NCBI GenBank assembly: GCA_963833985.1
Contig: CAWIAD010000001.1
Location: forward strand, 3,360,001 to 3,424,000
Reading direction: 5' to 3'
Source of the DNA: an uncultured Planctomycetaceae bacterium
GTDB lineage: Bacteria; Planctomycetota; Planctomycetia; Isosphaerales; Isosphaeraceae
DNA length: 64,000 bases
This document shows positions 1 to 18,586 of this stretch, piece after piece. A program made the translations under genes and the position numbers. Position 1 is the first letter of the stretch, and every line of letters starts with the position of its first letter. The notes beneath the pieces are model-generated. The model worked only from the letters and a program-made list of their open reading frames with translations. It was not told the origin of the DNA and ran no database searches.

Positions 1-255
1 ACGACCGCGGGGCTTTCCGTCGAGCGAGAGAAAGAAATCCAGGTGCCGTACAAGAGGATCCAGATCTCGGGTCAACGGCTGGATCTGGTGGTTGGCGGGC
101 GCATCATCGTGGAGCTCAAGACCGTCGACTCGATAGCGCCCATCCATGAGGCCCAGTTGCTCTCATACCTCAAAACCACCGGGTTACGGCTTGGGTTCTT
201 GCTCAACTTCCGAATACCCGTTCTCAAGGACGGGATCCGGCGGTTGGTCCATTGA
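1..255 (+). CDS. GxxExxY family protein (PD-(D/E)XK-like), 5'-truncated by the window edge
   Basis: Frame is open from base 1. The motifs RLDLVV..IIVELK, HEAQLLSYLK and GFLLNF are typical of the GxxExxY C-terminal half. Confidence 0.85.
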   Translation, partial: TTAGLSVEREKEIQVPYKRIQISGQRLDLVVGGRIIVELKTVDSIAPIHEAQLLSYLKTTGLRLGFLLNFRIPVLKDGIRRLVH

Positions 256-272
256 GCCGTATTCCCTCCATT

Positions 273-480
273 CCTTCGTGATCTTCGTACCCCTTGTGGT
301 TCCACCCCCTCTTCCCCATGATTCACGCAACGTGCCTGCCTGTTCCTCGAGGCGTATTCTTGGATTCCTTCGTGATCTTCGTGCCCTTTGTGGTTTCAAT
401 CATCTTCCTGGTTCTTCGCCCGCGTGGCTCGCTGCCCGAGGCATGATCTCTCGACGTCCTTGATCCCTTCGTGGTTCAAT
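273..480 (+). repeat. Three dispersed ~30-bp elements built from 9-nt CTTCGTG-NN units ending in GTGGTT
   Basis: ccttcgtgatcttcgtaccccttgtggtt (273-301), ccttcgtgatcttcgtgccctttgtggtt (367-395) and a degenerate copy ending cccttcgtggttcaat (~450-480). Confidence 0.7.
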
Positions 481-570
481 CCCTCCTGGCATTTTGCGGC
501 GGTTGCGGGCACAATCGAGTTCCTGACAGAACGACGTGAAAGACAGACAGCCAGCGAGGGTTGTTCAACG

Positions 571-909
571 ATGGCCGATGTGATCAGCTACGATGATTTC
601 GCCAAGCTGGAGCTGCGCATCGCGAAGGTTCTCGAGGCGCGGCCCCACCCCAACGCCGACAAGCTCCTGCTCTTGCAGGTAGACCTGGGTGACGAGCAAA
701 AGCAGATCGTGGCGGGGCTGCGGCAGCATTACACGCCCGAGCAGCTCAGCGGCAAGCTCATCGTCATCGTCAACAACCTGGCGCCCGCGATGCTGCGCGG
801 CGAGACTTCCAATGGCATGCTGCTGGCGGCCACCTCGGGTGACAAAGTCATCGTGCTGACTCCCGACGACCCCGACTGCGCCGCCCGGGTCGAAGGTCAA
901 GTGAGCTGA
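571..909 (+). CDS. Stand-alone tRNA-binding OB-fold protein (MetRS C-terminal/Trbp111/CsaA family)
   Basis: MADVISYDDFAKLELRIAKV..HPNADKLL..NLAPAMLRGETSNGMLLAA. A probable indel near the 3' end makes ...GSKVK* (stop at 904) the likely true end. Confidence 0.88.
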   Translation: MADVISYDDFAKLELRIAKVLEARPHPNADKLLLLQVDLGDEQKQIVAGLRQHYTPEQLSGKLIVIVNNLAPAMLRGETSNGMLLAATSGDKVIVLTPDDPDCAARVEGQVS

Positions 910-944
910 CAGCAGGTGCATCGGGACCGCGAAGCGAAGACGGC

Positions 945-2538
945 ATGAGCGGAGCGCGAACACGCAACAACCCGCACGCGGACATGGGCGATTTCCAGAC
1001 GCCGCCGGGCCTGGTTGCGGCGATCCTCGCCACGCTGGGACCGATCGGCAAACGGTACAGCCGCGTCCTGGAACCGACGTGCGGCCACGGTGCGTTCTTG
1101 CGGGGCTTACTCGAGCACGAGTATCCGCCCCGCGAGCTTATCGGTATCGAGCTCCAGGAGTGCCATTGGGCCCAGGCCCAGGCACTCGCGCGCAGAGACG
1201 GGCCGTCTCGTCGAGGTTGTGCACGGCAATCTCTTCCGGATGAATCTCCGCGCTGGCCTTACGTGGCGTGGCGATGGGCCGCTCCTGGTTCTGGGCAACC
1301 CGCCCTGGATCACGGCCTCCGCCCTCGGCCGGCTCGAGAGCGGCAACCATCCGCAAAAGCGCAATCTCAACCAGTTACCGGGCCTGGCGGCGCGCACCGG
1401 CAGCGCGAACTTCGATATCGCGGAGGCCGTATGGATCAAGTTGATCGAGGAGCTGGCGCCGGAACGGCCGACGATCGCCTTGCTGTGCAAGACGGCCGTG
1501 GCGCGGAAGGTCCTCGAGTTCGTCCTGCGCCGGGACATTTCCGTGGTCGACACGGCGGTTCACAGGATCGACGCCGGGCGCTGGTTCGGCGCTGCCGTGA
1601 GCGCCTGCTTGCTTCGCTTCACCATCGGGGCGGGAAGATCGGACCACGGGATAAGGATTCCCGTGTTCGCGACGCTCGCCGCGAACGAGCCGTCCGAATT
1701 CATGAGCTTCCAGCAGGGACGGCTGACCGGCGATGCAGACGCCGTGCAGCAGCACGCCTTCGCGCTGGGAGCGTGCCCTCTCACCTGGCGGCAGGGCATC
1801 AAGCACGACGCCGCTGCGATCCTGGAACTGGTGCACGACACCGCGACGAACTCGTACCGCAATGGCCTGGGCAAGACCGTCAGCGTCGAGCCCGAGTTCC
1901 TCTATCCTTTGCGGAAGGGCACGGACCTGCGCAAGGCACCCGCCGATCGTCCCCGCCGAGCCCTGATCCTCACGCAGAACGGAATCGGCCAGCCCACCAG
2001 CCCGCTGGAACAAAGAGCGCCCAGGCTCTGGGATTACCTGCAACGCCACAAGTCTGCCTTCGCCGGCCGGAAATCATCGATCTACCGCGGGCAGCCGGCG
2101 TTCGCCATCTTCGGCGTGGGACCCTACAGCTTTGCTCCCTACAAGGTGGCGGTATGTGGTCTGTACCGCACGCCGAGCTTTCAGCTCGATGGCCCGATCG
2201 CCGGCCGACCGGTCATGGTCGATGACACGTGCTACCTGCTGCCGTGCACTTCGGCGGCCGAGGCCGCCGGGCTGTGCGCGCTGTATCAGGACCCGGCCGC
2301 GCTGGCGCTGATTCGGGCGCTGAGCTTCGCCGACGCCAAGCGGCCCGTGACCAAAGGGCTGTTGCAACGCATCGACGTGTCGGCGATCTTGATGCGAGCC
2401 GACCGTGCAGCGCTGCTCCGCCGCGCAGCCGACGCGCTGGCCGAGCAGGATGAACCGTGCCAGGAGGCGGAGCAGGGGCTGCCCGCGGCCATCGATCGGC
2501 TATCCCTACGGTTCCAGACCGAGCGTGATCCCACTTGA
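945..2538 (+). CDS. N6-adenine DNA methyltransferase, split by a frameshift near 1200
   Basis: GDFQTP and VLEPTCGHGAFL (motif I) in ORF 945. LLVLGNPPW (motif IV) in ORF 1015..2538. Confidence 0.8.
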
Positions 2539-2547
2539 GGAGAGACC

Positions 2548-3309
2548 ATGGCATTCGCCCGCATCAATTACTTCAGCCGATCGCTCGGGAAAGCCTCGTC
2601 GTTCAGCGTGGTCTTCCCGGATGATCCGTCGGTGCCCCGGCCCTACGCGGTCTTTTACCTGCTGCACGGGCTCTCCGACGACGACACGATCTGGATGCGC
2701 CGGACGAGTATTGAGCGGTACGTGGAAGGCATGCCGCTGGTCGTGGTGATGCCCGATGGCGGGCGGGGCTGGTATACCAACGCCCAGATTGGCCCGGCCT
2801 ACGAGGACGATCTGATCAAGGACGTGGTCGGGCTTGTGGATCGCACGCTGCCCGTGAAGGCCGAGCGCGCCGGCCGGGCGATTGGCGGGTTGTCGATGGG
2901 CGGCTACGGCGCGGTCAAGCTTGGGCTCAAGCACCACGCGATGTTCGCCAGTGTCAACTCGCACTCCGGCGCTCTGGCGATCCTCCAGGAGCCGCTGGAT
3001 ACCGAGGGCCGCAAGGACCTGGGCCCGGAGCTGGAGCGCCTCTTCGGCAAGAGCCCGAAAGGCGGCCCGGAGGATCCCTTCGGCATCGTCGAGCGGCTCG
3101 ATCACGGGCGCATCCCCGCCCTGCGTATCGACTGCGGCAAGGGAGACTTCCTGCTGGAACAGAACCGCGCGTTTCACCGCCATCTCGAAGCAATGCACAT
3201 TGCCCATGAGTACGAGGAGTTTGTCGGCGTGCATAGCTGGGAATACTGGGACGAACACGTGCGCGCAGCGATCGCCTTCCACGCACGGAACCTGAAGATC
3301 GCCCGGTAA
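2548..3309 (+). CDS. Alpha/beta hydrolase esterase (tributyrin esterase/S-formylglutathione hydrolase-like)
   Basis: YLLHGL, GLSMGG nucleophile elbow, DCG..D, G.HSWEYW. RBS GAGGAG upstream. Confidence 0.88.
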   Translation: MAFARINYFSRSLGKASSFSVVFPDDPSVPRPYAVFYLLHGLSDDDTIWMRRTSIERYVEGMPLVVVMPDGGRGWYTNAQIGPAYEDDLIKDVVGLVDRTLPVKAERAGRAIGGLSMGGYGAVKLGLKHHAMFASVNSHSGALAILQEPLDTEGRKDLGPELERLFGKSPKGGPEDPFGIVERLDHGRIPALRIDCGKGDFLLEQNRAFHRHLEAMHIAHEYEEFVGVHSWEYWDEHVRAAIAFHARNLKIAR

Positions 3310-3464
3310 TCGAGGCGCCCGCCGTTCGCACCCGCTTCGGCTCGGGCCCGTTATTCCACCGGCTGGCTTGAAAAGCGTAAAATGAGTCGAGTCAACCAGT
3401 TTTGTGGCGGTTCCGCGTTCCTGTGACCGGACCGGCCCGGGCGCGGGTGGGAGTCTTTCGGGTC

Positions 3465-5201
3465 GTGTTGCAGCAGCTTTCGGTGCAGAACCTGGCGCTG
3501 ATCGAGGACGTGCAGGTGGAGCTCGAAGGCGGCTTCTCCGCCTGGACCGGTGAGACCGGCGCGGGCAAGAGCCTGCTGCTGACGGCGCTGGGGCTGGTGC
3601 TGGGCGGCAAGGCCTCGTCCGAGTTCGTCCGCGCGGGCAAGAGCGAGGCGCGCGCGTCCGCGGTGTTCGAGATTGGCGACCGGGTGCTCCGCGAGAAGCT
3701 GGAGGCCATCCTGGGCGCGATCATTGAGGAAGACGTGTTGATCATCACGCGGCGTGTCAGCGGCCAGGGCCGCAGTATGGCGCAGGCGAACGGTACGCCC
3801 GTGACGATCGGGACGCTCGAGCGGCTGGGAGCGCTTCTGGTCGACATCCACGGTCAGCACGAGGGCCGCGCGCTGCTCGATCCGGACGGCCAGCGCGCGC
3901 TGATGGACGGCTTCGGCAAGCTCGAGGGGCCTTTGGAGGCCTATCGCACGGCCCGCGCCGGCCACGACGCCCTGCGCCGCAAGCGCCAGCAACTGCTCGA
4001 CGCCACGCTGGCCAGGCAGCGCGAGCGCGCCCTGCTCGAGTTCGAGCGCGATGAGCTGGAAGCCGCCGATCCGAGGACTGGCGAGTACGACGAGCTGATG
4101 CGGCAGTCGCATGCGATGGCCAGCGCGGAGGCGATCCGGGCGGCCGCCACGGAGGGATACGGCTTGCTCTACGAGGCCGATCACTCGGCCCAGGAGCTGC
4201 TCAAGCGCGTGGCCCGCAACCTTGAACCGCTGGCCGCGGCCGCGCCCGAGCTGGCCGACGCGGCCGCCAGCCTGGCGCGCCTGGCCGGTGAGACGCGCGA
4301 GGTGGCCTACACCCTGCGCGACCTGGGCGAGCAGTGGGAGGACGATCCGCGGCGTCTCGAGGAGATCGAGACGCGCCTGGCGCTCTATCGCCGGCTGGCC
4401 GGCCGGTTCCATTGCACGCCCGATGCCCTGGCCGACCGCAGGGTAGCCACGGCGGCCAGGCTTGCGGCCATCGCGCGTGACGAGGAAGACCTGGGCTCGC
4501 TGGACGTGCCGCTGGCTCAGTCGTTTGCCGCGCTCAAGAAAGTCGCGGCCAAACTCTCGAGCGCGCGAAGGAAGACGGCGGAGCGCTTCACCACGGCCAT
4601 CCAGGGTCAGCTCCGATCCCTCGGGCTGGAGAAGTCGCGGATCTCCGTCGAGGTCGAATCGCGCGAACTGGGCGCTGATCCTGCGGCCGCGGCTGCTCCC
4701 GAATCGGGCCTGGACTCGGTCGAGATGCTCTTCCTGGCCAATCCCGGCGAGTCGCCCAGGCCGTTGCGGAAGATCGCCTCAGGCGGTGAGCTGTCGCGGG
4801 TGACGCTGGCGGCCAAGACCGTACTAGCCGGGGTGGACCGTGTTCCCACACTGATCTTTGACGAGATCGACACGGGCGTCGGCGGCCGGCTGGGATCGGC
4901 GCTCGGCAAGGCCCTGGGCGCTCTGGCACGCCATCACCAGGTCGTATGCATCACCCATCTGCCGCAACTCGCTTCCCACGCGCACCACCAGTGGGTGATC
5001 CGCAAGCACGTGGAGCGAGGACGCACGAGCACCACCATCACCCTGCTCTCCGACGCCGACCGCGTGCACGAACTGGCGCTGATGCTGCGCGGCGAGTCGG
5101 CCGCGGAGGGAACCCGGCAGGAGGCACTCGACATGCTCCGCGAGGCACAGGGCGCCGAGAAGCGAGCCACGGGAACCAATGGCCGCGTCCGGCGGCGGTA
5201 A
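3465..5201 (+). CDS. recN: DNA repair protein RecN
   Basis: TGETGAGKS Walker A, DIHGQHE, KIASGGELSR, IFDEIDTGVGG, QVVCITHLPQLA. Confidence 0.96.
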   Translation: MLQQLSVQNLALIEDVQVELEGGFSAWTGETGAGKSLLLTALGLVLGGKASSEFVRAGKSEARASAVFEIGDRVLREKLEAILGAIIEEDVLIITRRVSGQGRSMAQANGTPVTIGTLERLGALLVDIHGQHEGRALLDPDGQRALMDGFGKLEGPLEAYRTARAGHDALRRKRQQLLDATLARQRERALLEFERDELEAADPRTGEYDELMRQSHAMASAEAIRAAATEGYGLLYEADHSAQELLKRVARNLEPLAAAAPELADAAASLARLAGETREVAYTLRDLGEQWEDDPRRLEEIETRLALYRRLAGRFHCTPDALADRRVATAARLAAIARDEEDLGSLDVPLAQSFAALKKVAAKLSSARRKTAERFTTAIQGQLRSLGLEKSRISVEVESRELGADPAAAAAPESGLDSVEMLFLANPGESPRPLRKIASGGELSRVTLAAKTVLAGVDRVPTLIFDEIDTGVGGRLGSALGKALGALARHHQVVCITHLPQLASHAHHQWVIRKHVERGRTSTTITLLSDADRVHELALMLRGESAAEGTRQEALDMLREAQGAEKRATGTNGRVRRR

Positions 5202-5247
5202 ATGACCGTGCGGCCAGGTCTCTCCCACCCAGGTTGAGGAACAGCCC

Positions 5248-7065
5248 TTGGCGACCAGTCCTGACTTACCGGAGACAACGGCACTTGCCCGGCCCACCCC
5301 GGGAGCGCCTGCGGTGCGGAGTTTACCGTGCGATCCGGGTACGGGCCTGTTCGTCGGGTCGATCTGGATGGCGATGCTGGTCCTGGCGGTTGTTTACGTG
5401 CTGCGGTTTGGTGCGGATGTCCCCCTCTGGGATGATTACGCGGTGGTCCCCCAGCTCGCCGGCACTGAACCGGTCACGATCGGCTGGCTGTGGTCGCAAC
5501 ACAGCGAGCACCGGATCCCGCTCGCCCGGCTCATCCTGCTCGGGGCGTTCCGGTCAAGCGGGGCGGATCCCCGACCGGTCATGCTGCTGATCGTCGGGTT
5601 GCTCGGTGCGCTCGCCGTCGGGCTGCTGCTGGCGGTTCGCCGAGTTCGCGGATCGTGGCATGCGGCGGACGCGTTCCTGCCGCTCGTGCTCCTGAACCTG
5701 GGTCAGCATGAGAACTTCCTCTGGAGCATCCAGATCACCTACGTGCTGGCCGTGGTCCTCCTCGGAGTGGTTCTGGCCGTGGTGGTGCGCAGCCGTGAGG
5801 TTCCGGGCCTGGGCAGCCTGGCCCTTGCGTCGCTCTGCATGAGCCTCATGCCCCTCTGCAACGCGGGAGGACTGGCCTTCCTTCCCGCACTTCTCCTCTG
5901 GCTCTGGCTGCTGGCCGCGGGCGTGCTGGTGCGGCATGGGGCGGCCGGCCGACGGCGGGCACTGGCCATCGCGGCGTTCTCGTTGCCTCCCCTGGTTTTG
6001 ATGGGTCTCTACCTGCACGGCTATTCGGCGCCCGCTCACCACGCCGCGCCGGGAGACGCTACGGCCGTGGCCCGGACAACGCTCCAGTTTCTGGCCATGA
6101 GCCTGGGCGAGCCTGGCGCCCGTCTCTGGCCGGCCTCCGGACTGCTGGTGCTGGCACTCTTGCTCAGTGCTACGGCCTTGCTGGCGTGGGTCTGGATCAG
6201 GCAGCCCGCGGAGCGCGCCAGGATCGAGGGACTGGCCTGGGTGCTGGCCGCCGTGGTCTCGCTGGCGCTCGGCTCCGGCTGGGGCCGGTCCGGTGAGGGC
6301 GTGCTCGCTGGTCTCCAGCCGCGCTACACCACGCTGGCGGCTCCCGCACTGCTGGTCAGTTACTTCGCCCTGTCTTGTTACGGCTGGCGGGCAAGCCGCA
6401 CATTCTGCCCCCTGATCCTGTTTTTCCTTGGCTGTGTGCTGTTGTGGCCAAACATCGAAACCGCCTGGACCACTGGCGACGCTGCGCACCGCAAGGCCCT
6501 TGCCGTCGATCGCGACCTGGCGTCGGGCGTCCCCTTGTTCCGTCTGGTGCGCCGGCACACGCCGTTCCTCCATCCTTCGCAGGAGATTCTGCACGAGTCG
6601 CTCTCGCTGTTGCAACGCGCCGGGATCGGCAGGTTCCGGTCGATCCAGGACGATCCGCCCTTCGGGGAACAGCCCGTGCCCCTGCAACCGGTCGAAGTCC
6701 GGCTGGCGCGATGGAACGAGGGCCGCATCGAGGTGACGGGGCTCGACCCCTGGATCCGCTTCAACCTGGCCGCGCCGCTCTACGTCTGCGGCGTGCGGAT
6801 GCGGTATGCCCACGCCGCGGCCAATGGGGCTCCGGCCCATTTCCGGATGGCCTGGCGCGGCCCCACCCTGGCTGATCTGCCCATCGAGCCGCAGTACGGT
6901 AACTGGAACCTCCCCACCGGTCCCGACCAGACGACGACGATCTGGATTGACGACTGGATCTCCCAGATCCGGATTCAGCCCGACAACCACCCGTGCACCT
7001 TTGAGCTGCGCACGTTGACCCTGTTGTTGCCCACTGCACAATTCAGCGACGAGACCAGGAAGTGA
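5248..7065 (+). CDS. Multi-pass membrane protein, GT-C glycosyltransferase-like, with a soluble C-terminal domain
   Basis: N-terminal TM then DVPLWDDY and QHSEHRIPL loop motifs, about 10 hydrophobic segments, and a hydrophilic C-terminus. Confidence 0.6.
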   Translation: MATSPDLPETTALARPTPGAPAVRSLPCDPGTGLFVGSIWMAMLVLAVVYVLRFGADVPLWDDYAVVPQLAGTEPVTIGWLWSQHSEHRIPLARLILLGAFRSSGADPRPVMLLIVGLLGALAVGLLLAVRRVRGSWHAADAFLPLVLLNLGQHENFLWSIQITYVLAVVLLGVVLAVVVRSREVPGLGSLALASLCMSLMPLCNAGGLAFLPALLLWLWLLAAGVLVRHGAAGRRRALAIAAFSLPPLVLMGLYLHGYSAPAHHAAPGDATAVARTTLQFLAMSLGEPGARLWPASGLLVLALLLSATALLAWVWIRQPAERARIEGLAWVLAAVVSLALGSGWGRSGEGVLAGLQPRYTTLAAPALLVSYFALSCYGWRASRTFCPLILFFLGCVLLWPNIETAWTTGDAAHRKALAVDRDLASGVPLFRLVRRHTPFLHPSQEILHESLSLLQRAGIGRFRSIQDDPPFGEQPVPLQPVEVRLARWNEGRIEVTGLDPWIRFNLAAPLYVCGVRMRYAHAAANGAPAHFRMAWRGPTLADLPIEPQYGNWNLPTGPDQTTTIWIDDWISQIRIQPDNHPCTFELRTLTLLLPTAQFSDETRK

Positions 7066-8798
7066 AGCAGTCCCGAACCGCCACCAGCTTCGTTGCCACG
7101 CCGGGAACGCTCCGGACGGCCTGGCTCAGGCGGCCAGTCGGCCGTGGCGGCGTGGTCGTGCTGGTGCTGCTGCTCGCGGCCGCTCCCTGGGTCCTGTTCT
7201 TCGATCCATTCGCCGGTTTGAGGCAGGGACACATTCCGCGTGATCCGGCGGCGATCTATCGTCTCTACAGTGATGACTTCGCCTACGTGGCGGCCTCGCG
7301 CACGCTGCCGAGGACGGTAGTCAACCTGTTCGCCCCGCACAACACGCACATCGTTCCGGCCTGGCGGGTGCTGACCTGGGCGCTGGTGGCCTCGGCCGGC
7401 GCGCTCGAGAAGCTGCCGCCGGTGCTGGCCGAAGCGGCCTACGGCATCCTCATCGCCGCGATGCTTCTGACCGGCCGGTTCGTCGCGCGTGAGACGGGCC
7501 GCTCCGGCGCGGGGCTGGCGGCAATGACCGCCGTGGGCCTGACCTCGGTGATGGCGTCTCCGGCCTGCTGGTACTCGGCCGGCCAGACGCTGTGGGCCGG
7601 CTTCGCTATCCTGGCCAGTCTCTGGTACGCCCAGTGCTGGCGGAGGCGGCCACGGCTCGCCGCGCTGGTCCCCGGCGGCGTTGCGGCGGCGCTGGGAGGC
7701 TGGTTCTGGACCATCGGCTACCTGGCCGGACCTGTCGCGGCGGTCTATCTCTGGCTCGACGGCCGGCGGCGGTGCCGCATCGCGGCCGCGGTGCCGCTCG
7801 CTGCGGCAATCGCGGCGTTCCTGCTGGCCATGGCCCTGGGCGGGGGCAGGATCGACAGCACCGTCAGCTTTCACGGCCGCAAGCCGGGTGAGGCCGCGCG
7901 TCCCGTGGAGGGTCTGCTTCATACAGCGCAGGCCATCCCGGAAAACCTGGTCCTCGGCAACCTGGGGCTCAAGGCCCAGACCACGGCCGCACAGGGGGCG
8001 GTGCTTTGCGCGCTCTTGTTTGGCGTCTGGGCCGGCGGCCGCTTGCGCACGCGTAGGCTCGGTGCGTTCAACCCGCTCGAGTGCACGGGGCTGGCCCTCG
8101 TGCTGGGGAGTTACCTGGTGGAGTGGACCGTACGCGGCTATTTGCCGTTCCGGTCCCTGCGCACCATCAGCCTGGGAATGATCGTTCCCTGGTACGACGC
8201 CGTGCCGCAGATTGGCGCGGTCCTGTTCATCGCCGGCTGGTGGGCCGGACCGCGCACCGCGGGCCAGCGGCCGCCGGTCCTGCGAGCCACCGCGTCACCG
8301 AGTCGCGCGGCCGCGCTCGGAGTCCTCGGCTTGATGGCGGTTCTGCTGGTTCTGAACCGTCCCAGGGTGGACCTGCTCTGGCGCAACTGGGTGCCTCCGC
8401 CGTCGCCCGCGGAGTTGCAGCGGTTTCCAATCCTTTCCTTGCAGTCGATGCGCGCCACCGCACTACTGCTCGACCGAGCTGACTGGCAGCGCCGGCACCT
8501 GCGACGACTGGACCAGGCGCAGCAGGTCGCTGCGCGGTCCGGGATCGGCCGGGATGGAATCCGTGCGGCTTTCGGTCGGCTCGACGCGCCGGAGCTTCCT
8601 GACGTCTACGATGCCGCCGGCCTGCTCGACCTTCCCGAACACGGGCGGATCACCGATGTGGAGCTGATCCGTCGGGTGCTGGGGCCTTTTCTTTTCAAGG
8701 AGAACGCGCCTCGGCCGCCCTGGCTCCCTGCATCAGAGCCCTGGCCGCCCGTGGATCGGCCGCACTGGTCCGAGTCGGACGTGGATGTTTCTGATTGA
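7062..8798 (+). CDS. Multi-pass membrane protein, GT-C-like
   Basis: Overlaps the previous stop (GTGA). YSDDFAY and HNTHIVPAWR loop motifs, many TM segments. Confidence 0.55.
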   Translation: MKQSRTATSFVATPGTLRTAWLRRPVGRGGVVVLVLLLAAAPWVLFFDPFAGLRQGHIPRDPAAIYRLYSDDFAYVAASRTLPRTVVNLFAPHNTHIVPAWRVLTWALVASAGALEKLPPVLAEAAYGILIAAMLLTGRFVARETGRSGAGLAAMTAVGLTSVMASPACWYSAGQTLWAGFAILASLWYAQCWRRRPRLAALVPGGVAAALGGWFWTIGYLAGPVAAVYLWLDGRRRCRIAAAVPLAAAIAAFLLAMALGGGRIDSTVSFHGRKPGEAARPVEGLLHTAQAIPENLVLGNLGLKAQTTAAQGAVLCALLFGVWAGGRLRTRRLGAFNPLECTGLALVLGSYLVEWTVRGYLPFRSLRTISLGMIVPWYDAVPQIGAVLFIAGWWAGPRTAGQRPPVLRATASPSRAAALGVLGLMAVLLVLNRPRVDLLWRNWVPPPSPAELQRFPILSLQSMRATALLLDRADWQRRHLRRLDQAQQVAARSGIGRDGIRAAFGRLDAPELPDVYDAAGLLDLPEHGRITDVELIRRVLGPFLFKENAPRPPWLPASEPWPPVDRPHWSESDVDVSD

Positions 8799-8874
8799 GC
8801 CCGGCGGAAGGTCGTGAGCGAAACCGACGGCGCGGCGACCTCCGGCAGTGCCTCGGTCCCCGCGTTGCTTGCGG

Positions 8875-10311
8875 TCAGTACGGCGTTCCCTCGTCGATGG
8901 GCGGCTCGGCCAGCGTGGAGAGATTCTCGAAGCGCGTGAGGTTCTTGAGGAAGGTCAGCTTGACGCTGCCGGTCGGGCCGTTGCGGTTCTTGGCGATGAT
9001 GATTTCGGCCAGCCCGGGCTGGTCATTGGGATCGTAATAATCGGGCCGGTGCAGCAAGAGAACGATGTCGGCATCCTGCTCGATGGCGCCTGACTCGCGA
9101 AGGTCGGCCATGCGGGGCCGGCGATCCTCGCGGCTCTCCACGGCCCGGTTCAACTGCGACAGCGCGATCACCGGCACGTGCAGCTCACGGGCCAGCGTCT
9201 TGAGCCGCCGGCTGATCTTGGCGATCTGCTCCTGGCGGCTGTCTCTCGATTCCTCGGCATCCACGAGCTGAATGTAGTCGACGACGATCAGCCCCAAGCC
9301 TTTGCGCAGCTTCAGCCGTGGCGCCGAGGCCGTGATCTGGAGCATGTTGCGGGCGGGGGTCGAATCAATGAAGAACGGGGCCTTCTCCAGCTCCACGTAG
9401 GCCTTGCCAAGCTTGTTCAGTTCGCGGTGGTCCAGACCAAAGCCCTTTCGCAGCTTGTGGCTGTCCACGCGTGACCGCGACCAGAGGAGCCGCTCGGTGA
9501 CCTCCAGGTCCCCCATCTCCAGGCTGACCATGAGAACGGGCACGTTCTGGGTGAGGGACGCGAATTCACAGATGTTCAAGGCCACCGCGGTCTTTCCCAT
9601 GCTCGGCCGGGCCGCGATGATGATGAGCTGATCGGCATGGAAGCCGTTGGTGTAATCGTCCAGGTCGAGGAACCCGGACCCAACGCCGGTGACGGGGTGC
9701 TTCTCGACGGCCCGCTTCTCGATCAGGTCCATGGCCCTGGCCAGGATCTCCTTGAGCTCGTGCGTTTCTCCACGGGTCTGATCCTCGGCGATTGTGAAGA
9801 TCTTCTGCTCGGCCGATTCCAGGAGCTGCTGGGCCGTGTACAGGTTGGAATAGCCCTCGCGGATGATCTCGGTGGCACTCTGGATGAGATGCCGGCTGAT
9901 GGATTTCTGGCGAACCAGCTCGGCGTGATAGCGCGCGTTGGCCGCGTGCGGCACGCTGTTGGCGATCTCCAGCAGCATCTCGTCGCCGCCAATCTGGCTG
10001 AACTGGTCGCGGCGGATCAGCTCGTCTGCCAGGGTGACCGCGTCAACGCCCTTCCCCGCAGTGTAAAGCTCGCTGATGGCCCGAAAGATCACCTGATGCG
10101 CATCCCTGTAGAAATCGTCGGCGGTCAGGAACTGGGCTATGTCGTGAAGCACCTCGTTGTCCAGCAAGATCCCGCCCAGCAACCAGCGCTCGGCCTCCAG
10201 ATTCTGTGGAGGCAGGTGATCCGCGAGCGAGCCGCTCGGGCCGGACAGCGGCACGCTACCATTGCCTCCGCCCGTCTTTCCATTGCCATGACCGCTTGGT
10301 TGAGACCCCAT
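8875..10311 (-). CDS. dnaB: Replicative DNA helicase DnaB
   Basis: PPQNLEAE, AARPSMGKT, IVVDYIQL, ALSQLNR, DLRESGAIEQDAD, IIAKNRNGPTG. No intein seen. Confidence 0.97.
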   Translation of the reverse strand: MGSQPSGHGNGKTGGGNGSVPLSGPSGSLADHLPPQNLEAERWLLGGILLDNEVLHDIAQFLTADDFYRDAHQVIFRAISELYTAGKGVDAVTLADELIRRDQFSQIGGDEMLLEIANSVPHAANARYHAELVRQKSISRHLIQSATEIIREGYSNLYTAQQLLESAEQKIFTIAEDQTRGETHELKEILARAMDLIEKRAVEKHPVTGVGSGFLDLDDYTNGFHADQLIIIAARPSMGKTAVALNICEFASLTQNVPVLMVSLEMGDLEVTERLLWSRSRVDSHKLRKGFGLDHRELNKLGKAYVELEKAPFFIDSTPARNMLQITASAPRLKLRKGLGLIVVDYIQLVDAEESRDSRQEQIAKISRRLKTLARELHVPVIALSQLNRAVESREDRRPRMADLRESGAIEQDADIVLLLHRPDYYDPNDQPGLAEIIIAKNRNGPTGSVKLTFLKNLTRFENLSTLAEPPIDEGTPY

Positions 10312-10725
10312 ACCGCGCGAATCTCCCCGAGAGACAGACGCCATGCGGAACCACAAACTTGTGCCCAGAGCGCGTCCGCCAGCTCCATCACGGCTTCATT
10401 ATCCGGACCCCCACGCCACCCGTGGAAGTGGCAGACCGGTCCTCATCGACCCAGCGCAACCCTTCTGAACAATCGTATCGGTTCGCGGGTGCGCAAGGCA
10501 TCGCAAAAAAAGCCGGAAAAAAGAGCACGGTCACCGACTCATGCGGCGCCGGCCGTGCTCCGTGCAACCACGATTCGCAGCGCTCAAAAAAAAGGGATGC
10601 AACATGTCGAGCGGCGCCGCGAGGGAACCTGCAAGAACCCGGCCACCTGCATCGGGACTCGCGACCGGACCGGCGTGCTGCTGGCCTGGCTAGAAAAATG
10701 CCAGGGCGGTGCTGCACCGCCACGA

Positions 10726-11935
10726 TCAATGCCGCGGCCCCGCGCCGACCCGGCTGGAGAGCTGCTCTGCCCGTTTCTCGAGGAACTGGCCGGCGCGCTC
10801 GCGGCCATAAGAGATCAGGCCGTTCAAGAACGCGGCGCTGCGGTCAAACCGGGACGAATCATCAAGGTTATGCTCCATGACAATCCGATGGATTTCGATG
10901 AACCGAGAATCCCCGCCGATCAGCCTGCCTTGCTCCAGCAGCCGGTTGATCGATCGGATGAAACGGACCTCCTGCTCCAGGACCTGGCTACTGGCCAGCT
11001 CAACTGGATCCACGGCGCAGACAGGGAAGGCCCCGGCACGCCGGTCCTCAACCTTGTTGATCTGGATGAGCCAGATCTCACTCGGCTTGAGCCGGGCCAG
11101 TTCGCGAACGGGTGAGCCTGTGGCGAGGACAGCCCCTACGTCGCGAGAGTGCCGCGGGGCAAGGCAGAACCCGGGTTGCGATCTTCAAGGTCTCCATGTC
11201 GACCTCGGCCCCGCGCTGGACGTCGAGAGTGCCGTTTGCATCGGCGGTGCCGATCACGAGTTGCGTCGAGCCGGCTCCCCCGGCCTGTGACCGTGCTCGC
11301 GTGGCATGCCAATCGAGCCGACGTCCCAGCAAACCGCAGAGTTGCTCGGTACTCAGGGCCGTGACATCCTGAAGCCCATGAACCGGAAGCGGCACGAGTG
11401 CTCGAAGTTGCAGCGCGATCTGGGCGGAGTAGTTCAGCAGGGCGTCCACCACGGAGGCTGACGAGTAGTCGCGCCAGAAGCCTTCCAGCTGCTCCACGGC
11501 CTGGTGCGGCCCGCCGCGGAGTAATCCGTCCCAGGCAAGGACTGCGCAGAGAGATCCGAACGACGTGCCCGCCAGCGCAACGACCTCGATCTCGCTGCTG
11601 CCTTGCTCCAGCAGCCCTTGGAGCACGCCGGCCGTGAAGGCCGCCTGGCTGCCCGTGCCCTGGCACATCACGGCGACGCGTCTGCGGTCCGCGACGGGAC
11701 CGGAAGAGTCGGTTGCCCGCGGGTCGCCAGTGCCGGGGCCGAACGGCTCGTCGCCGAGCAGCACGTCCCGCAGCGTTGCGAACTGTTCGTGGTCGATCCG
11801 GCCTGTGTCCCGCAGGTCCTGGATCTCCTCCAGGCAAAGCTCGACCGCCTCGTCCTTGCCCGGGTAAAACGCGTGCCGAGCGATACGCGTCACCGATCCC
11901 TTCAACTTCTGGAAATAGGTGGCATTGTCCAGCAT
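10726..11935 (-). CDS. Patatin-like protein with N-terminal extension, frameshifted near 11140
   Basis: CQGTGSQAAFTAGVL and GTSFG in ORF 11078..12073 (start MLDN at 11935 after GAGG). The C-terminal part is in the frame of ORF 10726..11013. Confidence 0.7.
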
Positions 11936-12074
11936 GGCACCCTCAGGGCCAGCAAAATGGTGCGGGGTGGCAGTTCCCGCCCATTCCGGCCCTTTGCATT
12001 CGTGGACCTGAGCCGCCCGGGCTCTTTCACCAGGACCTTCCGCCCGCTCATGGTCAAGCACGACCCGCTGCAAG

Positions 12075-12979
12075 GTCTATTATCAGTATTGCCGATATGG
12101 GTCTGGAGGATGCAACGAAAAACGAAGCAATATTCAATATAGTTCGCATCGGTCCTGTGCACGGCCACGGGGTATTGCTTGAAAAAGAGTTTAATCTCGG
12201 ACAGAGTTGAAGAGTTGTCCCGGACATGACATTAAACTGTGCCCGGCAGTCCTACCCCTGCTGGCATCATTGGGTGGGTTGGCGGCAGAAAGGGCATCCG
12301 GCTGTAAAACCTTGCACACACCTCAGTGAGTCCTTCTCCCTACCTCTGCTCTTCAGTTGTCCCTCCGCAACTGGACATTGTCTGGATGGGGGGTTGGCTT
12401 GGAGCAGAGATGGATGGAGGGCTCAAAGAGGGAAACGTCCAATCCGTGCGTAGCACGGACAAACTCAAACAATGCTCAAGATCTGAGGTTTGAAAAATCG
12501 ACGAAAAATGCGGAGAGAATCATACAAATTGAATTTACCTGTCGGGTTTAAGTCGTGGGATGATGGGTTGAAGCTGTCGGGTCAAGACAAACACGCAATC
12601 AAGCTTGTGACAGGCTGCAAGCTTCATGACATCCGATGGTGAGATCTTGTGCATGTTCACTTCCCTGCGGTTGGTGAGAAAGAGAATGGCTGCCAAAGCA
12701 TCGTACGTGACGTCGTACACCTCAATGCGTGACCGCATTCCGCGACTCTCTTTGTTTCTCACAAGCAAGAAGAGCTGATTGCCGAGAATCGCTGCCGAGC
12801 TCATATGAACCATTTCACTCTCACGCACCCACTGATCAACACGCGGATGGTCATCGTCCAATAGCGGCAGTCCGATCACGTTCGATTGGCTGGGCTGCGG
12901 GTCTGTACCTAGCGGCGGGATCTGCGCGAAAACAATAGCAAACTTTATTATAATTGTAATTATAATAAACTTTATATAT
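12075..12979 (-). other. Probable eukaryotic (animal-like) genomic fragment with GT-AG introns
   Basis: GC drops sharply relative to 1-12075. On the minus strand an AT-rich tract ends ttttcgcgcag|, an open exon runs ~12922-12539, then donor |gtaaat and a ~56-nt intron ending ttttcaaacctcag|. Confidence 0.45.
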
Positions 12980-13015
12980 CCCCAAAACCCCAAAACCCCA
13001 AAACCCCAAAACCCC
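12980..13015 (+). repeat. Spirotrich ciliate telomere (C4A4)4C4, 36 nt
   Basis: Perfect ccccaaaaccccaaaaccccaaaaccccaaaacccc directly followed by AT-rich coding DNA that uses TAR as Gln. Confidence 0.93.
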
Positions 13016-13027
13016 AATCGATTGAAT

Positions 13028-16000
13028 TCATTAAGAACTTAATTCCTCTATAATCTTCATCATAATTTTCATGACATGTTCACCTTCTGATCATACTTAT
13101 TCAGGATCTTCATTCATCTTCTCTACTTTTTATTTTAGAACTTCAATATCATCCCTAACAGGAGCTTTCTTATCTGGATTAACAAAAGATTCTAACTCCC
13201 CATAGCTTAGTCCTAGTATATCTTATCCTTACTTGTAGATATCTTCATTGTCTCAGCATGGAATCTCATCAAGATGAACTCATTGCTAATGAGAACCTAT
13301 AGATCAAATCAAGTCAAAGGCTACTGCTCTGATTATGAACATTCCTGATTTAGCTGTGTCTCATATTTGATCTAGCTTTTAGTTCATCTAATTCAATTTC
13401 TTCATATCTTTACCTAAATCCTACTTTAAGGATTTCTGCATCGAATCAATATCTGATACTAAAGATTCATTTTCTTGTTATAACTATCCTACTTTCATCT
13501 TTAAGCTCGATATCTATTATTCCTTTCTATCTATTTCAGACTTATATTTCTTCTTAATTTCCTTTACTTATGATTCTAATAAATCTTCACTATTGGATTA
13601 TTTAGGTAGAGGCTGTTACTAAGCCTTCTATTTAAGATCTTTTGTAATTGTTTCTTTTCACTGGACATCTAATTTAAGTGATTTTATTTATTCTCTTTAT
13701 TTCTCTAAGTCCTCAGATAATACTTATTCTCATTACTTAAGTTCATCTAATTGTTGTTTCAATTCTTTTATTCATGCATCTTTCCTACTTAATTCTTTCT
13801 ACATTTTACATATTTTCTCTAGATCTTCCTTTCATTCCTCGAGTTCTTCACATACTTTCTCTGCTTCCTACATTGACTATGTCTTCTCTTCTTTAATTTT
13901 CTACACTAGATCTTTCTTTCACTATAACTCTTCTTTCATCTACTTAACCTAGCTTTATAGCTCTCTTTCAACTTCTTTACTTTTCTAATACTATTCTGGA
14001 CATATCCAACTCTACTTCATTTTCTACACCTCTTATCTTAGTTCTTCTCTCTCTTACTTCATCTACTTATTCATCTCCTTGACCTCCTTCTTCTTCTCAT
14101 CTAATTATTGCCTCATAGTCAATTCATTCTACTCTTTCTCCTCTACTTGTTTATTCAGCTATTCGTTCTCATCTCATAACCTATGCATCATAGTCTTCAA
14201 CTCACTACTCTCATTCATATGCTTTATCGCCTTAGACTCTGAGAATGCCAATTACTTCATAGTTTACAGATCACCTATGCACAGATCTTCATTCTTTTGC
14301 GATTTCTTTGATTCTTTTAGTTGTTATTGTAAAGATTTTACCACAGCCTCTCTTTGGGATAGTTCAAACAGAAGGTTAGGAAGTTGGTTATCTTAGCCTT
14401 GCTTAAGCTTAGAAAATTCAGAAGAGATACGAGTTCACATGAATTCTATCTATGATTCATACATATTGACAACTTACTAGTTCTAAGCCTGGATTGATTA
14501 AATTTCTTTCTTGAAATCCTATGCTAGAGTGTCTAGCTCTAGTTACTTGTCTGATAACTATGCTTAGAGTTATTAACATCTAAGTTCTAAATCTCTTACC
14601 TTATGTACTTCAAATTACTCTATCTTCGAGAATGATAACTATGTTTACTCTATTTAGGAGTTTAGTCTAAATGTTCCTTCCTTTAGCTCTTCATTTTCAC
14701 ATTATAACAACTAAACTTATCCTTATCTGTCTTATAATTGCTATTAAGCTATCTTTAACTGCTTCTTTATATTCTTCTTCTCTGTCTCAAGTTACTATAC
14801 CTTCTTGATGATTTCCTCTATTTCTTAAGTCTAAGATGATTAAAGGGCTTAATATCATTAGTTTAGATCCTCTAGCATTTAAAGAGTATTTGATTAATCT
14901 TCTTTTAACAGAATAAGTTACTACTCTTTGTATTTCAATTCTACTAATGCTTTCTATAAATCTTATCTCACAGAATAACTGTCTTCATTTTATACTTCTG
15001 TTCTATTCAAAGATTAATTCTCCTTGAATTTCTACATTCAGAGTATTTCTTCAGTAAGCTCATTAATTTTATCTCTCTACTACTTCACTATATTCTCTTC
15101 TTTAATCTTCTTCCCTCATGCAGAATCTATAAATCCTTCAGTATCCGAATGAGAATGTCGAGGTCCACTTGTCTATCTATACTTCGACTTCTTCTTAATA
15201 GAAGTAGCCAACTTTGATTTCTCTTCTATCCAAGACTCTTCAGAGGATTTCACTTAGGAAAGTTTCTATTGTAATAATTTATTTTCTGATTCTAGAAGTT
15301 TTAATAAGGATGATGATTGTCAAGAACTTTGTAATGAATCTTCTAAAAGTCATGATTAGGCAAGATCATTTGATAATAGTTTGTTTTATGTTTGAAGAGA
15401 TGTTATTTGCTGTTTAAGATCTTTGATAGGAGATGAATTGTCTTCAATATTCGATTATGGGGCTTAGTTAGTAGCTTATATCAAATTCTTTAGATCAGAT
15501 ATTTCTCTTTCTTTTGAAGAATTGCTCTCTTTAATCTTCTTTAATTCAGATTTCAACTATAGATTTTCAGAATCAAATTTCTCATTTTATTTCATCATAA
15601 GCTCAGCATTCTATCCTATGGCTTTCACTTTATCATTTAAAGATTTCTCATTCTATCACATTATATACATCCGTTCCTCTAATTCTTTCCCTACTTCCTC
15701 TGCTACTTTCAATTTATCTTTATACATTTCTATCTCAGATCTTCCAGAATGAGGAATCTACTCAATATCTGATTTGATCAGAATACAAGTTGAATGAATT
15801 GATGATACCTCTCAAAACACTTCTTGTAGATTCTTAGCTAGTCCCTTAATAGAAGCATTAAATTAGATTGTTCCAGTGATTTGCTAAGAAAGTTTATCTA
15901 CCTAACTTTATAACTCAATAAATTGTTTCTCTACAATAGAGGATTGAGTTTCTAAAAGTTCAAGATACCATATATTTCATTCTTATTCACCAGTAGGAAC

Positions 16001-17839
16001 ATAGTTGACAAGATGATCTATCTAATGACCTGAATTTCATTGAAGAATAGATGAAATTGTTTGTGATAGTTATCTAATCACAAGTCTTTATGTTCATTCA
16101 ACTGATGATTAAGATTGCAAAGGAGCATGCTCTTACTAAATTGAATCAAATGCTGAATATGTAAGAGAATCTCTTCTATCATTTCTATGTGTAAGCACAG
16201 AAGCTGTCAGAGTATCATTAAGAGCAGTATTCTTTACAGTGGATTACATTTCCTTTTCACATACATAACTAGCCAAGTATAAAATTGTATCAATGAATGG
16301 ATCTATCTCTTCACTTGATTAATAATTAAGTGCTGTTTAACCATAAGATTCTAAAGCCTCTGCTTCTCTTATTCTAATCTCTTCGATCTATTTAGATTCT
16401 GAAGGTTGAAGAATTGAACTTTTGTATACAGATCCGGGCTATAGTTCATCAATATCAAATGCTTTATCTCTCTATTTTCTATTTGATGAGTATTGATTAT
16501 CATCATAGCATGCTTCAATCTCTCACAATCATTCATTTTGTTTCTGTATAGTTCATAAGTATTCTTTCTCTTTTCTTCCACATCTTCTAACTTCACATAT
16601 TGCCTTTCCTTCTAATCTTTTAGACTATATTATCATTTCTGTCAATATTGAAGGAGCAACAACAAATTCTCATGGTTTCAATAACCCTGCATTTATTTGG
16701 TTAACTATCTACATTGATGAATTCTCAAAACTTTATTCTTTGCCTTTCTTCTTTATACTACTAACTTCCTATTTCTATTAAGGTTTATTCAAAATAGATT
16801 CTAAATCTTATATTTCCTTTTCTTTAGTAAACACAAGATCAGATAATGATGCAGCTCTTTCTTCACTCTCCTCAAGTTGTCACATATAATATTCTAATTT
16901 AGATATTAGATTATCGTTCTACTTCTCTAACTCTTGGTTTTCGGTTAAGAATTGTTATTTAGATTGTAGAAGCTCACCTGGTGATTATCCAGGCTCATAT
17001 TTATCAAGAACTTATTTTAATCAATGCTCACATTCTAGTCTCATTATTGAAAGTTGCTTCTCATATTCTTCTCTTAAATTGTCAATAGAATGTTGATCAA
17101 CTGATTATGAAACTTACTTTTGACTTTATTCAAGGATTTATATTTCTTTTCGTAATTCATCAATTTGAATGTCTCTAAGTGTTAATTCCCTTCTTAGTTA
17201 TAATATTTATTCTTCATCAACTAAAATAATAGGATTCATCTACTTCACTTCTATGGGTTTCTATTTTCTAAAATCTTCAATCAACATTTCTTTATCTAGA
17301 AGTTCTTAGGATAGAGTCCTGTTTAGTTCTCATATTTCAATTATCTCATTAAGAATGCACTGCTCGGATGTCTTTATTGCAATGAGTTCTTTAGATAAAG
17401 ATTCATTAATGTTCTAAGAAGTTCCTAAGACGACTGTTCATAGATGATTATCAAAATAAGATTATAGTTAATCTCTCATAATATTTGTAAAGTCTTCTTT
17501 AGATGATTTAGTTTACTTTGATTACTTCAATTTATCTATCTAGAGTTTTAACTATAATCTTGTTTGTTATTCACTATAAAGTTTTGAATTTGTTTCATTT
17601 TAAAGCTTTTATACATCTTTAATTAAGGATGCACATTCTTTAAGTTTGGATTACTAGTGATGAATTGATTATTCTAATTATATAAATATTTTATTTTCCA
17701 ACTACTATAGATTTAATTCTTCTAAATTTGTGCTATTTAATCAATCAACAAATTTATTGGTCTAGAATCAACTTTATTTTAAAATATTCTTTGTATTCTA
17801 ACTCAACTAAGATCTTTTACTCTATGATTGATTTGAATC
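13028..17839 (-). CDS. Large coiled-coil protein (~1,600 codons, 5'-truncated) in a ciliate code with TAA/TAG=Gln and internal TGA sense codons
   Basis: Hand translation gives one unbroken frame rich in E/K/Q/L, e.g. KELSRKDA*IKELKQQLDELKQ*EQVL and HRL*DENEQLNKQVEEKEQNELTMRQQLDEKKKEVKEM (*=TGA). The standard-code ORF track misses it. Confidence 0.88.
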
Positions 17840-18434
17840 TCACCGTCGGAGGTTTGGTGAACATGCCGCCGATGATGTCGCCTGCGGCGGAGAACATCTG
17901 ATAGGTGCCCAAGGCCCCGGTGCTGGCTTCCGCCTTCTGCCAGCCGAAAACTTCATGGTAGAAGGCGAACGCTTTCTCCCCCAATCGCCCGCAAACAATT
18001 CATGCCAACAAACGCCCCCCGGCCCGTCCAGCGCGGCAGGTTGCTTCGGGCCGGGGTTGTGCCACTTGAGCAATGCAAGCGCTGCCATTTGCGGGTCGGC
18101 GACGACCGATAAGCGGCTGATGTTCGGGATATCCATCGGCGGAACATGCACCAGGATCCACCAAATCTAACGATCCGGCCGGCGACGGCATCGACGTCGT
18201 CGACACCGACATACCCGATCCAGATTGGCTTCGCGCCCGCTCTCTGCGCATCCTGCGGCAGGCTCGTCAGCCCGCCGACCGCGACGTCGCCGACGGTAAA
18301 CAGTGTATAGGCCGCGCCCGGCGTCGACGCGTCCTGCATAACCAGCCGACCACCCTGGTGTAGAAGGCCTTGGCGGCCTCCATGTCCATCGTCGTCAGTT
18401 CGTACCAGACAAAACGGCCACGATAATCGACCAT
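17840..18434 (-). CDS. VOC/glyoxalase family protein, frameshifted and 3'-truncated at the junction
   Basis: MVDYRGRFVWYELTTMD, WIGYVGVDDVDA, FCWHEL-like segment, GGMFTKPPTV. Confidence 0.8.
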
Positions 18435-18586
18435 GGACTACTTATCCGCTCAAGGGTGAAGGATTTCGATCTAAACGACCAATAGCAAAAACTATGTTTT
18501 TTGATCGCCGCTCACGCGAGCAAGCCAAAAAGATTAGAGGTGGCGTCATGGTGGTTGTAGCTGTGCGTTCGGAATTGCATATCGTC

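Follow-up and report, generated by a model that had tools for sequence, protein, structure and literature searches.

We describe here a protein-coding gene of ciliate origin that lies within a bacterial genome assembly and whose reading frame contains all three standard stop codons. The gene occupies positions 13028..17839, on the minus strand, of a 64,000-nucleotide stretch of DNA (hereafter the window; positions 3,360,001 to 3,424,000 of contig CAWIAD010000001.1, GenBank assembly GCA_963833985.1, filed as an uncultured Planctomycetaceae bacterium). Comparison with homologous proteins indicates that UAA and UAG are read as Gln in this gene, and that UGA is very probably read as Arg, not as Trp or Cys, an assignment that we regard as well supported. 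This is the already published Q/Q/R code (TAA/TAG/TGA as Gln/Gln/Arg) and not a new one, from whose known users the window gene differs in degree.

Reading frame and protein family

The gene can be summarized as follows.

13028..17839, minus strand: gene for a long coiled-coil protein, truncated at its 5' end and 1,604 codons in length, with 155 in-frame TAA/TAG and 32 internal TGA

The frame runs from 17839 to 13028 without an indel over 4,812 nt (1,604 codons), and the gene lacks its 5' end, which was lost at the right junction (17839). Its stop triplets comprise 89 TAA, 66 TAG and 33 TGA (32 internal ones plus the last codon), and it further contains 3 TGG, 15 TGY and 49 standard Arg codons (AGA 39, AGG 6, CGA 2, CGT 1, CGG 1), the two CGA codons being located at 15158 and 17150. 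A preliminary description of this DNA, made from the sequence alone, had given the same codon counts and CGA positions together with an indel-free minus-strand frame of about 1,600 codons, and all of these were reproduced; the TGA contexts and coordinates it listed also agree with our translation.

For frame scoring, a codon-usage model was trained only on L002, a contig from an unrelated assembly that carries an orthologue of the gene. With this model all 16 of its 100-codon windows score positive in this frame, and 31 of the 32 such windows in the other two frames score negative. TGA is commoner in the two off-frames (46 and 90) than in the frame itself, where its count (33) is nevertheless far above zero. 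At the 48 strongly conserved columns of the family, the non-TGA codons encode the conserved residue in nearly all cases. The base following the sense TGA codons (A11 G10 T8 C3) is close to that following AGA, with no special base preferred. The 1,604-codon frame is real coding sequence throughout, and its gene is very probably functional.

No Pfam domain was found in the window protein or in three full-length homologues, and a word-indexed homologue search with the whole protein gave no match at E ≤ 0.001, the index being saturated by coiled-coil words. An exhaustive HMMER search with residues 406-1604, in which TGA was written as X, recovered 75 proteins at E ≤ 0.001. Five of these, at E ≤ 1e-30, are proteins of 2.6-3.1 thousand amino acids, and one weaker match is a hypothetical protein of Stentor coeruleus. 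The window gene is a member of a ciliate family of long coiled-coil proteins that lacks a Pfam domain. The homologue alignment, from which nine near-duplicate cluster members had been dropped, holds 82 rows and shows conserved blocks at about residues 565-770 and 1210-1600; because every TGA in the query was entered as X, no residue was presupposed at the TGA sites. A recurring R-K-(D/E)-x-x-I-x-x-L-K motif is visible in the MAFFT alignment, and among its four copies in the window protein the position of the R is occupied by a standard Arg codon in two and by TGA in two.

Meaning of UGA in the window gene and in other assemblies

The TGA sites whose columns bear most directly on the assignment are listed below, all on the minus strand.

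15977..15979: TGA codon 621, column R12 K8 of 25, just before the invariant WYLELLE; L002 has AGA here
13919..13921: TGA codon 1307, Arg in 41 of 41; the window reads ..L-Q-[TGA]-K-K-D-L-V, the family R-K-K-D-L-I
13658..13660: TGA codon 1394, invariant Arg column, Arg in 43 of 43; L002 also has TGA
TGA codon 1135: column K5 R1 of 7
TGA codon 1222: column K8 R4 of 22
TGA codon 1520: column K7 R4 of 23

A tabulation of the residues opposite the TGA sites, with TGA as X, had been proposed in the preliminary description. When the residues are pooled (n = 452), it gives R 112, K 53 and E 42, followed by others, with neither Trp nor Cys occurring once. The conserved columns, defined as those with one residue at ≥80% and n ≥ 15, point in the same direction. 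Five of these 48 columns are Arg columns, at which the window has AGA, TGA, AGG, TGA and AGA, and TGA is found at none of the remaining ones. The window has TGG at both conserved Trp columns and TAA at column 584, where Gln is conserved (20/22). The Arg content of the homologues is 5.0%, and that of the window protein increases from 3.05% without TGA to 5.05% with it, in accordance with the rise from about 3% to about 5% that had been anticipated.

We also computed Codetta-like log-odds over the columns with at least 10 homologues (529 columns), 14 of which have TGA in the window. As a control, the expected meaning in NCBI table 6 was recovered for 29 of 37 codons with at least 4 sites. Gln is the best residue for TAA (23 columns), TAG (25) and CAA (14). 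For TGA, the best of the 20 residues is Arg (-2.8); N (-9.6), S (-10.5) and K (-14.4) come next, and W and C both score -38.

Orthologues of the gene were sought by scanning metagenome contigs for the invariant motif [VI]WY[LI]ELLE, which yielded 34 confirmed loci; a family HMM, for which only the homologues had been used, was run against their frames, with stops as X. Thirty of the loci have in-frame TAA/TAG and no TGA in 17,683 aligned codons. In L010 the single TGA falls on the last aligned column and is its stop, and the five TGA of L009 are probably off-frame, because all of them are located where two frames both aligned. The locus L001 (7,293 bp, match at 6274-6681, on a C4A4 contig) has in-frame TAA 0, TAG 1 and TGA 4; since one TGA stands on a column that is Cys in three of four homologues and TAA/TAG are nearly absent, this locus is taken to be Euplotes-like (code 10).

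The remaining locus, L002, is a 3,173-bp contig of 28% GC with a single frame from end to end (TAA 54, TAG 19, TGA 25). It is the closest orthologue of the window gene, with 37% BLASTP identity over 1,064 positions and 36.6% over 906 shared columns, whereas the other loci with more than 150 shared columns show at most 26% identity to the window. Its 25 in-frame TGA, among 1,052 aligned codons, make up 25 of 51 Arg codons. They are found on Arg columns (R43/43, R36/44, R32/36, R20/28 and R21/27) and on K or K/R columns (K37/41, K16 R4, K15, K14 R9 and K11 R9), the others being on variable columns. The log-odds for TGA in L002 are again best for R (+3.1, with K at -6.3), and for the window and L002 combined R is at +0.3 against -20.6 for K. 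Trp columns are likewise TGG in L002.

In the pairwise alignment of the window and L002 three TGA sites are shared. Window TGA stands opposite AGA three times and AGG once in L002, and L002 TGA is opposite AGA three times and AGG once in the window. The partners found in this alignment are as follows.

TGA codons (n = 42): K11 R8 TGA6 Q4 S3 N2 Y2 E1, six others
Standard Arg codons (n = 47): K15 R8 TGA8 Q4 L3 N3 E2 S1, three others

The partner profile of TGA mirrors that of the standard Arg codons. For Lys, 148 of 248 partners are K; TGG has W as its partner in 6 of 6 and TGA in none.

Other gene families were obtained from a telomere scan of prokaryote genome records, which gave more than 147 stretches, mostly nanochromosome contaminants in metagenome-assembled genomes (MAGs); a similar scan of viral contigs gave 3 loci, which were not used. 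One MAG bin (G001) stood out by contigs that carry telomeres, are low in GC and lack a long frame when read with table 6. This is a 2.8-Mb MAG labelled Sphingobacterium that holds at least 12 telomere-capped ciliate nanochromosomes.

G001 telomeric contigs: C350, C371, C381, C396, C397, C420, C426, C435, C442, C444, C445 and C449 (loci L040, L042, L043 and L218-L226)

Each of these 12 contigs has one clearly best coding frame, with 11-33 in-frame TGA. A polo-like kinase contains 6 TGA, 2 TAG and 4 TAA within its Pkinase match, and the six TGA are opposite A, R (of the HRD motif), K, R, K and R of human PLK1 (PDB). In a PP2C protein, the 11 aligned TGA stand opposite S, K, R (of the GDSR motif), R, E, R, H, E, K, G and V of human PPM1A. 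By eye, TGA is also found at the Arg of what we take to be the P..R..H pattern in two repeats of a Kelch-repeat protein. G001 contigs also encode TPR and SAM proteins, and a Pfam scan of eight frames gave TPR, SAM and weak kinase matches only. The sole tubulin-family match in G001 has no in-frame stops, and no orthologue of the window gene was found in this bin.

A different result was obtained from L073, a complete 5.3-kb C4A4-capped nanochromosome (1-5306) in another MAG, which encodes a clathrin heavy chain on the minus strand (frame 1-5304). TAA, TAG and TGA all occur in frame, and the first 11 TGA are opposite M, T, C, G, L, L, A, L, C, L and V of solved mammalian clathrin. TGA is not Arg in this gene, whose code appears to be of the Q/Q/C type mentioned by Chen et al. 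(2023, PMC10089648) for Peritromus and, at low frequency, Diophrys. As TGA is not Arg-like in L073, the method does not give Arg by default.

Taken together, TGA stands at Arg positions of conserved proteins in three assemblies, namely those of the window, L002 and G001. The preliminary description had assigned UAA/UAG to Gln and UGA to Arg in preference to Trp or Cys, and in this it agrees with the homologue columns, the log-odds, L002 and G001.

The ciliate fragment in a chimeric contig

The window gene belongs to an island of low GC (12935-17840, about 30% GC) in a window that otherwise has 60-69% GC. The features around the gene are the following.

12173..12934, no strand: unplaced DNA of 762 bp and about 50% GC (46-56%), between the last host-like sequence and the ciliate piece
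12935..12979, no strand: AT-rich filler of 45 nt outside the telomere, from sequence reading
12980..13015, plus strand: telomere C4A4C4A4C4A4C4A4C4 (36 nt) of the nanochromosome, from sequence reading
17840..18441, minus strand: right junction, with a truncated VOC/glyoxalase-like bacterial gene split over three frames (weak Ble-like_N match)

The telomere at 12980-13015 consists of four copies of CCCCAAAA followed by CCCC, and is complete and internal to the contig. Its 16-mer has 3 matches against 0 expected, and this is the single C4A4 site, as the island is the single low-GC island, in the whole 10.2-Mb two-contig assembly. The piece from 12980 to 17839 is the 3' two-thirds of a macronuclear nanochromosome from a ciliate with C4A4 telomeres. 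At a natural chromosome end there would be no sequence in the place of the filler at 12935..12979.

The flanks of this piece have different origins. To the left, 3552-12172 of the window repeats, at 99.5%, a stretch from the end region of contig C2 (6,624,008-6,632,608), and the 762-bp segment that follows is part of the chimeric join; an open frame inside or next to it (12538-12936, minus strand) has no Pfam match. To the right, the 133 kb from 17840 to the contig end show a tetranucleotide correlation of 0.87-0.88 versus 0.98-0.99 elsewhere in the genome, and a GC content of 62.3% versus 65% for the remaining genome. The segment 17841-21000 is matched in none of 12 same-genus genomes, while the left flank is matched in all 12. 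The 133-kb tail is therefore DNA of a different bacterium, and 12980-17839 is contaminant ciliate DNA that was misassembled between the end of a planctomycete contig and this tail. This contaminant status had been missed in the preliminary description.

The VOC/glyoxalase-like gene at 17840-18441 (minus strand) is split over three frames, because of indel errors where coverage is thin or because it is a pseudogene. Five further MAG contigs (L049, L050, L061, L069 and L095) have an AT-rich ciliate piece whose C4A4/G4T4 telomere abuts bacterial DNA of 55-75% GC, so that misjoins between telomere and bacterium recur in public MAGs. We considered whether the ciliate DNA had truly integrated into the bacterial chromosome, but rejected this because of the complete internal telomere, the filler, the foreign bacterial DNA to the right and the similar joins in other MAGs. 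From a practical point of view, gene callers and contamination screens overlook such DNA, and it lands in "complete" bacterial genomes.

Termination, decoding and relation to known codes

The 3' end of the gene is closer to the telomere than in the telomere-bearing orthologues. The frame ends as ...TCT TAA TGA, followed by 10-12 nt to the telomere.

13028..13033, minus strand: tandem TAA (13031-13033) and TGA (13028-13030), the probable stop, at the homologous C-terminus
13016..13027, minus strand: 3' trailer of 10-12 nt from the last in-frame TGA to the telomere, from sequence reading

Four orthologues in which TGA serves only as stop (L005, L017, L018 and L026) end 1-3 codons past family column 1600-1601. 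The TAA and TGA of the window are codons 1603 and 1604, where these four orthologues stop, and the frame thus ends at the homologous C-terminus. In five telomere-bearing orthologues with TGA only as stop, the trailer ranges from 29 to more than 200 nt. The short trailer of the window would fit position-dependent termination near the 3' end, as judged from one gene only.

A possible mechanism is that UGA is decoded by an Arg-tRNA. This could be a dedicated tRNA-Arg(UCA), which might have originated from tRNA-Arg(UCG) by one change in the third anticodon base, or UGA could be read as a near-cognate codon by the abundant decoder of AGA. Either option would be paired with an eRF1 that is weak on internal UGA. 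C35 is the main identity element for arginyl-tRNA synthetase (ArgRS). A UCA anticodon would keep C35, and its origin would parallel that of the Gln suppressors, with CAA, CAG and CGA changing to UAA, UAG and UGA under AT pressure. Termination would still occur at a stop codon, either the TGA or the preceding TAA, and would be set by the position 10-12 nt from the chromosome end, resembling the context-dependent termination described for Condylostoma.

Several observations weigh against the reading of UGA as Arg, or against this mechanism. When the two invariant columns are left out, the other 12 TGA columns are variable and uninformative for Arg; the log-odds over these 12 are best for N, S and T, with R outside the top six and W and C at -32. 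Within the window alone, the Arg call depends on the two invariant columns, and its support is weaker there. TGA codon 676 is opposite D7 E7 of 20 and codon 1493 opposite E15 L6 of 28, and at most two homologues are aligned at 16 of the 32 internal TGA, namely those at codons 24-439 and 728-995. The organism is represented by one gene only, and a correction at the RNA level is compatible with the DNA data. In G001, a Gly in human PPM1A faces one TGA of the PP2C protein, some contigs have TAA or TAG as their final in-frame stop ahead of the telomere, and a search for eRF1 (PF03463) gave no match. No tRNA of any kind was found in 12000-18500 of the window, and a UCA anticodon was absent from the 10 tRNAs of G001 and from the 20 tRNAs of all fetched loci, searches that spanned a handful of ciliate contigs.

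The alternative meanings of UGA can be judged from the columns themselves. A Trp reading, as in Condylostoma and the karyorelicts where all three stops are sense codons, would be consistent with the three stops in frame and with the rarity of TGG (3) in an AT-rich gene, as expected for a synonymous TGA/TGG pair. Nevertheless, Trp is absent from the 452 residues aligned to TGA, its log-odds is -38 against -2.8 for Arg, and the conserved Trp columns of the window and L002 carry TGG, which is paired with W (6/6) and never with TGA; moreover, Trp would reach 2.2% of a coiled-coil protein. We consider this reading hardly tenable. The same holds for Cys, as in Euplotes or the Q/Q/C code of Peritromus. 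C4A4 telomeres occur also in Euplotes, and Cys-like TGA is seen in other fetched contigs (the Cys column of L001, and the Cys and small or hydrophobic residues opposite TGA in the L073 clathrin), but no Cys is aligned to TGA in the window, the log-odds is equally low, and TGA falls on invariant Arg columns. It is also very unlikely that the gene is a decaying pseudogene or that its TGA stem from errors in sequencing or consensus in a chimeric long-read stretch of poor coverage. The contig is indeed chimeric here, the adjacent bacterial sequence has indel-type differences and the VOC-like neighbour is frameshifted. In the gene, by contrast, there are no indels in 4,812 nt, the coding signal covers all 16 windows and the conserved columns are retained. 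TGA is confined to Arg or variable columns, whereas random changes of TTA, TCA, GGA or TAA would scatter over Leu, Ser, Gly and Gln columns. The same usage is seen in L002 and G001, assemblies that seem to be short-read from their contig names.

Two further alternatives concern the route by which Arg is obtained. U-to-C editing of the mRNA at the first codon base would turn the stops into CAA/CAG (Gln) and CGA (Arg), so that translation could follow the standard code or code 6; the Q/Q/R mapping is the exact outcome of such a change, and editing is compatible with all the DNA data. Reverse editing that removes stop codons occurs in some plant organelles, but we know of none in ciliate nuclear genes, and about 190 edits would be needed in this single mRNA. 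In addition, ciliates are known to read UAA/UAG as Gln by means of tRNAs (Chen et al. 2023, PMC10089648), and we regard editing as quite improbable. Near-cognate readthrough without a dedicated UGA tRNA, mainly by Arg but possibly mixed, with an eRF1 weak on UGA, would correspond to the bifunctional and low-efficiency picture drawn by the same authors; they discuss near-cognate decoding, with yeast inserting Trp, Arg or Cys at UGA. In favor of it are the window TGA columns, which are less Arg-like (-2.8, 14 columns) than the AGA columns (+5.7, 9 columns), and the missing tRNA(UCA). With 32 sites, including invariant Arg residues here and catalytic-motif Arg residues elsewhere, a correct full-length protein would be very rare unless decoding were efficient and specific. 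We consider this explanation unlikely.

Compared with the reading of UGA as Arg through efficient decoding, a more far-reaching proposal is that the three unrelated assemblies (window, L002 and G001) represent an undescribed lineage of C4A4 ciliates, in which UGA is a full, high-frequency Arg codon read by a dedicated tRNA-Arg(UCA), no codon is a dedicated stop, and nearness to the nanochromosome transcript's very short 3' end alone decides on termination. We put this forward tentatively, as possible but not as the expected outcome.

To our knowledge, no NCBI table has TGA=Arg. The preliminary description had proposed a candidate new nuclear code, which cannot be maintained because Chen et al. 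(2023, Mol Biol Evol, PMC10089648) already report Q/Q/R, as one of two new codes, in seven spirotrichs: Sterkiella, Tetmemena, Stylonychia lemnae, Paraurostyla, Uroleptopsis citrina, Uronychia setigera as well as U. binucleata. They count 5,922 TAA, 5,801 TAG and 987 TGA in U. setigera coding regions, describe five TGA in a tubulin ligase gene, every one matching R, and view such codons as bifunctional, a "low-frequency reassignment". In an earlier genome paper from the same group, Uronychia was taken as table 6 (PMC8670190). The list of ciliate codes in the accessible part of McGowan et al. (2024, PMC11687900) does not include UGA=Arg, and "arginine" occurs 0 times in it; the word is also absent from a 2023 critique preprint on UGA=Trp. 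No further report of a UGA=Arg nuclear code was found in the literature searched, which did not extend to subscription journals and the supplements of Chen et al.

The window gene resembles the Q/Q/R spirotrichs in having TAA/TAG as Gln and TGA as Arg in a nanochromosome-bearing ciliate, and TGA is also thought to be a terminator in the spirotrichs. It differs in that TGA is minor in those species, while in the window gene it provides about 40% of the Arg codons (32/81; 32 TGA versus 155 TAA plus TAG) and in L002 about half. With Condylostoma magnum and the karyorelicts, which have codes without a dedicated stop (Swart et al. 2016, PMC4967479), it shares the three stops in frame, UAA/UAG as Gln, and a stop very near the transcript or chromosome end; there, however, UGA is Trp, whereas in the window it is on Arg columns and never on Trp columns. 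NCBI table 6 likewise has UAA/UAG as Gln, and C4A4-capped nanochromosomes are found in several orthologous loci, but UGA is its sole stop; the window has 32 internal TGA where the 30 orthologous loci have 0/17,683. Euplotes (NCBI table 10) has C4A4 telomeres and a sense UGA, yet there UGA is Cys and TAA/TAG are stops, as in L001 and not in the window. New features of the present gene are the heavy use of UGA and a TGA that probably terminates it and stands 10-12 nt away from the telomere.

Among the ciliate codes that have been claimed, UGA=Arg has the poorest documentation; its only source in the literature searched is a single paper, where it is presented as bifunctional decoding of low frequency. 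Our analysis adds independent evidence from environmental DNA, consisting of the homologue columns in one family and the catalytic-motif Arg residues (kinase HRD and PP2C GDSR) in another assembly, and shows that UGA can supply 40-50% of the Arg codons. It also sharpens two questions, namely how UGA can be both a frequent sense codon and an apparent terminator, and which tRNA reads it. If the proposal of an undescribed lineage is true, its code would constitute a third kind of nuclear code with no dedicated stop, beside those with UGA=Trp in Condylostoma, the karyorelicts and Blastocrithidia.

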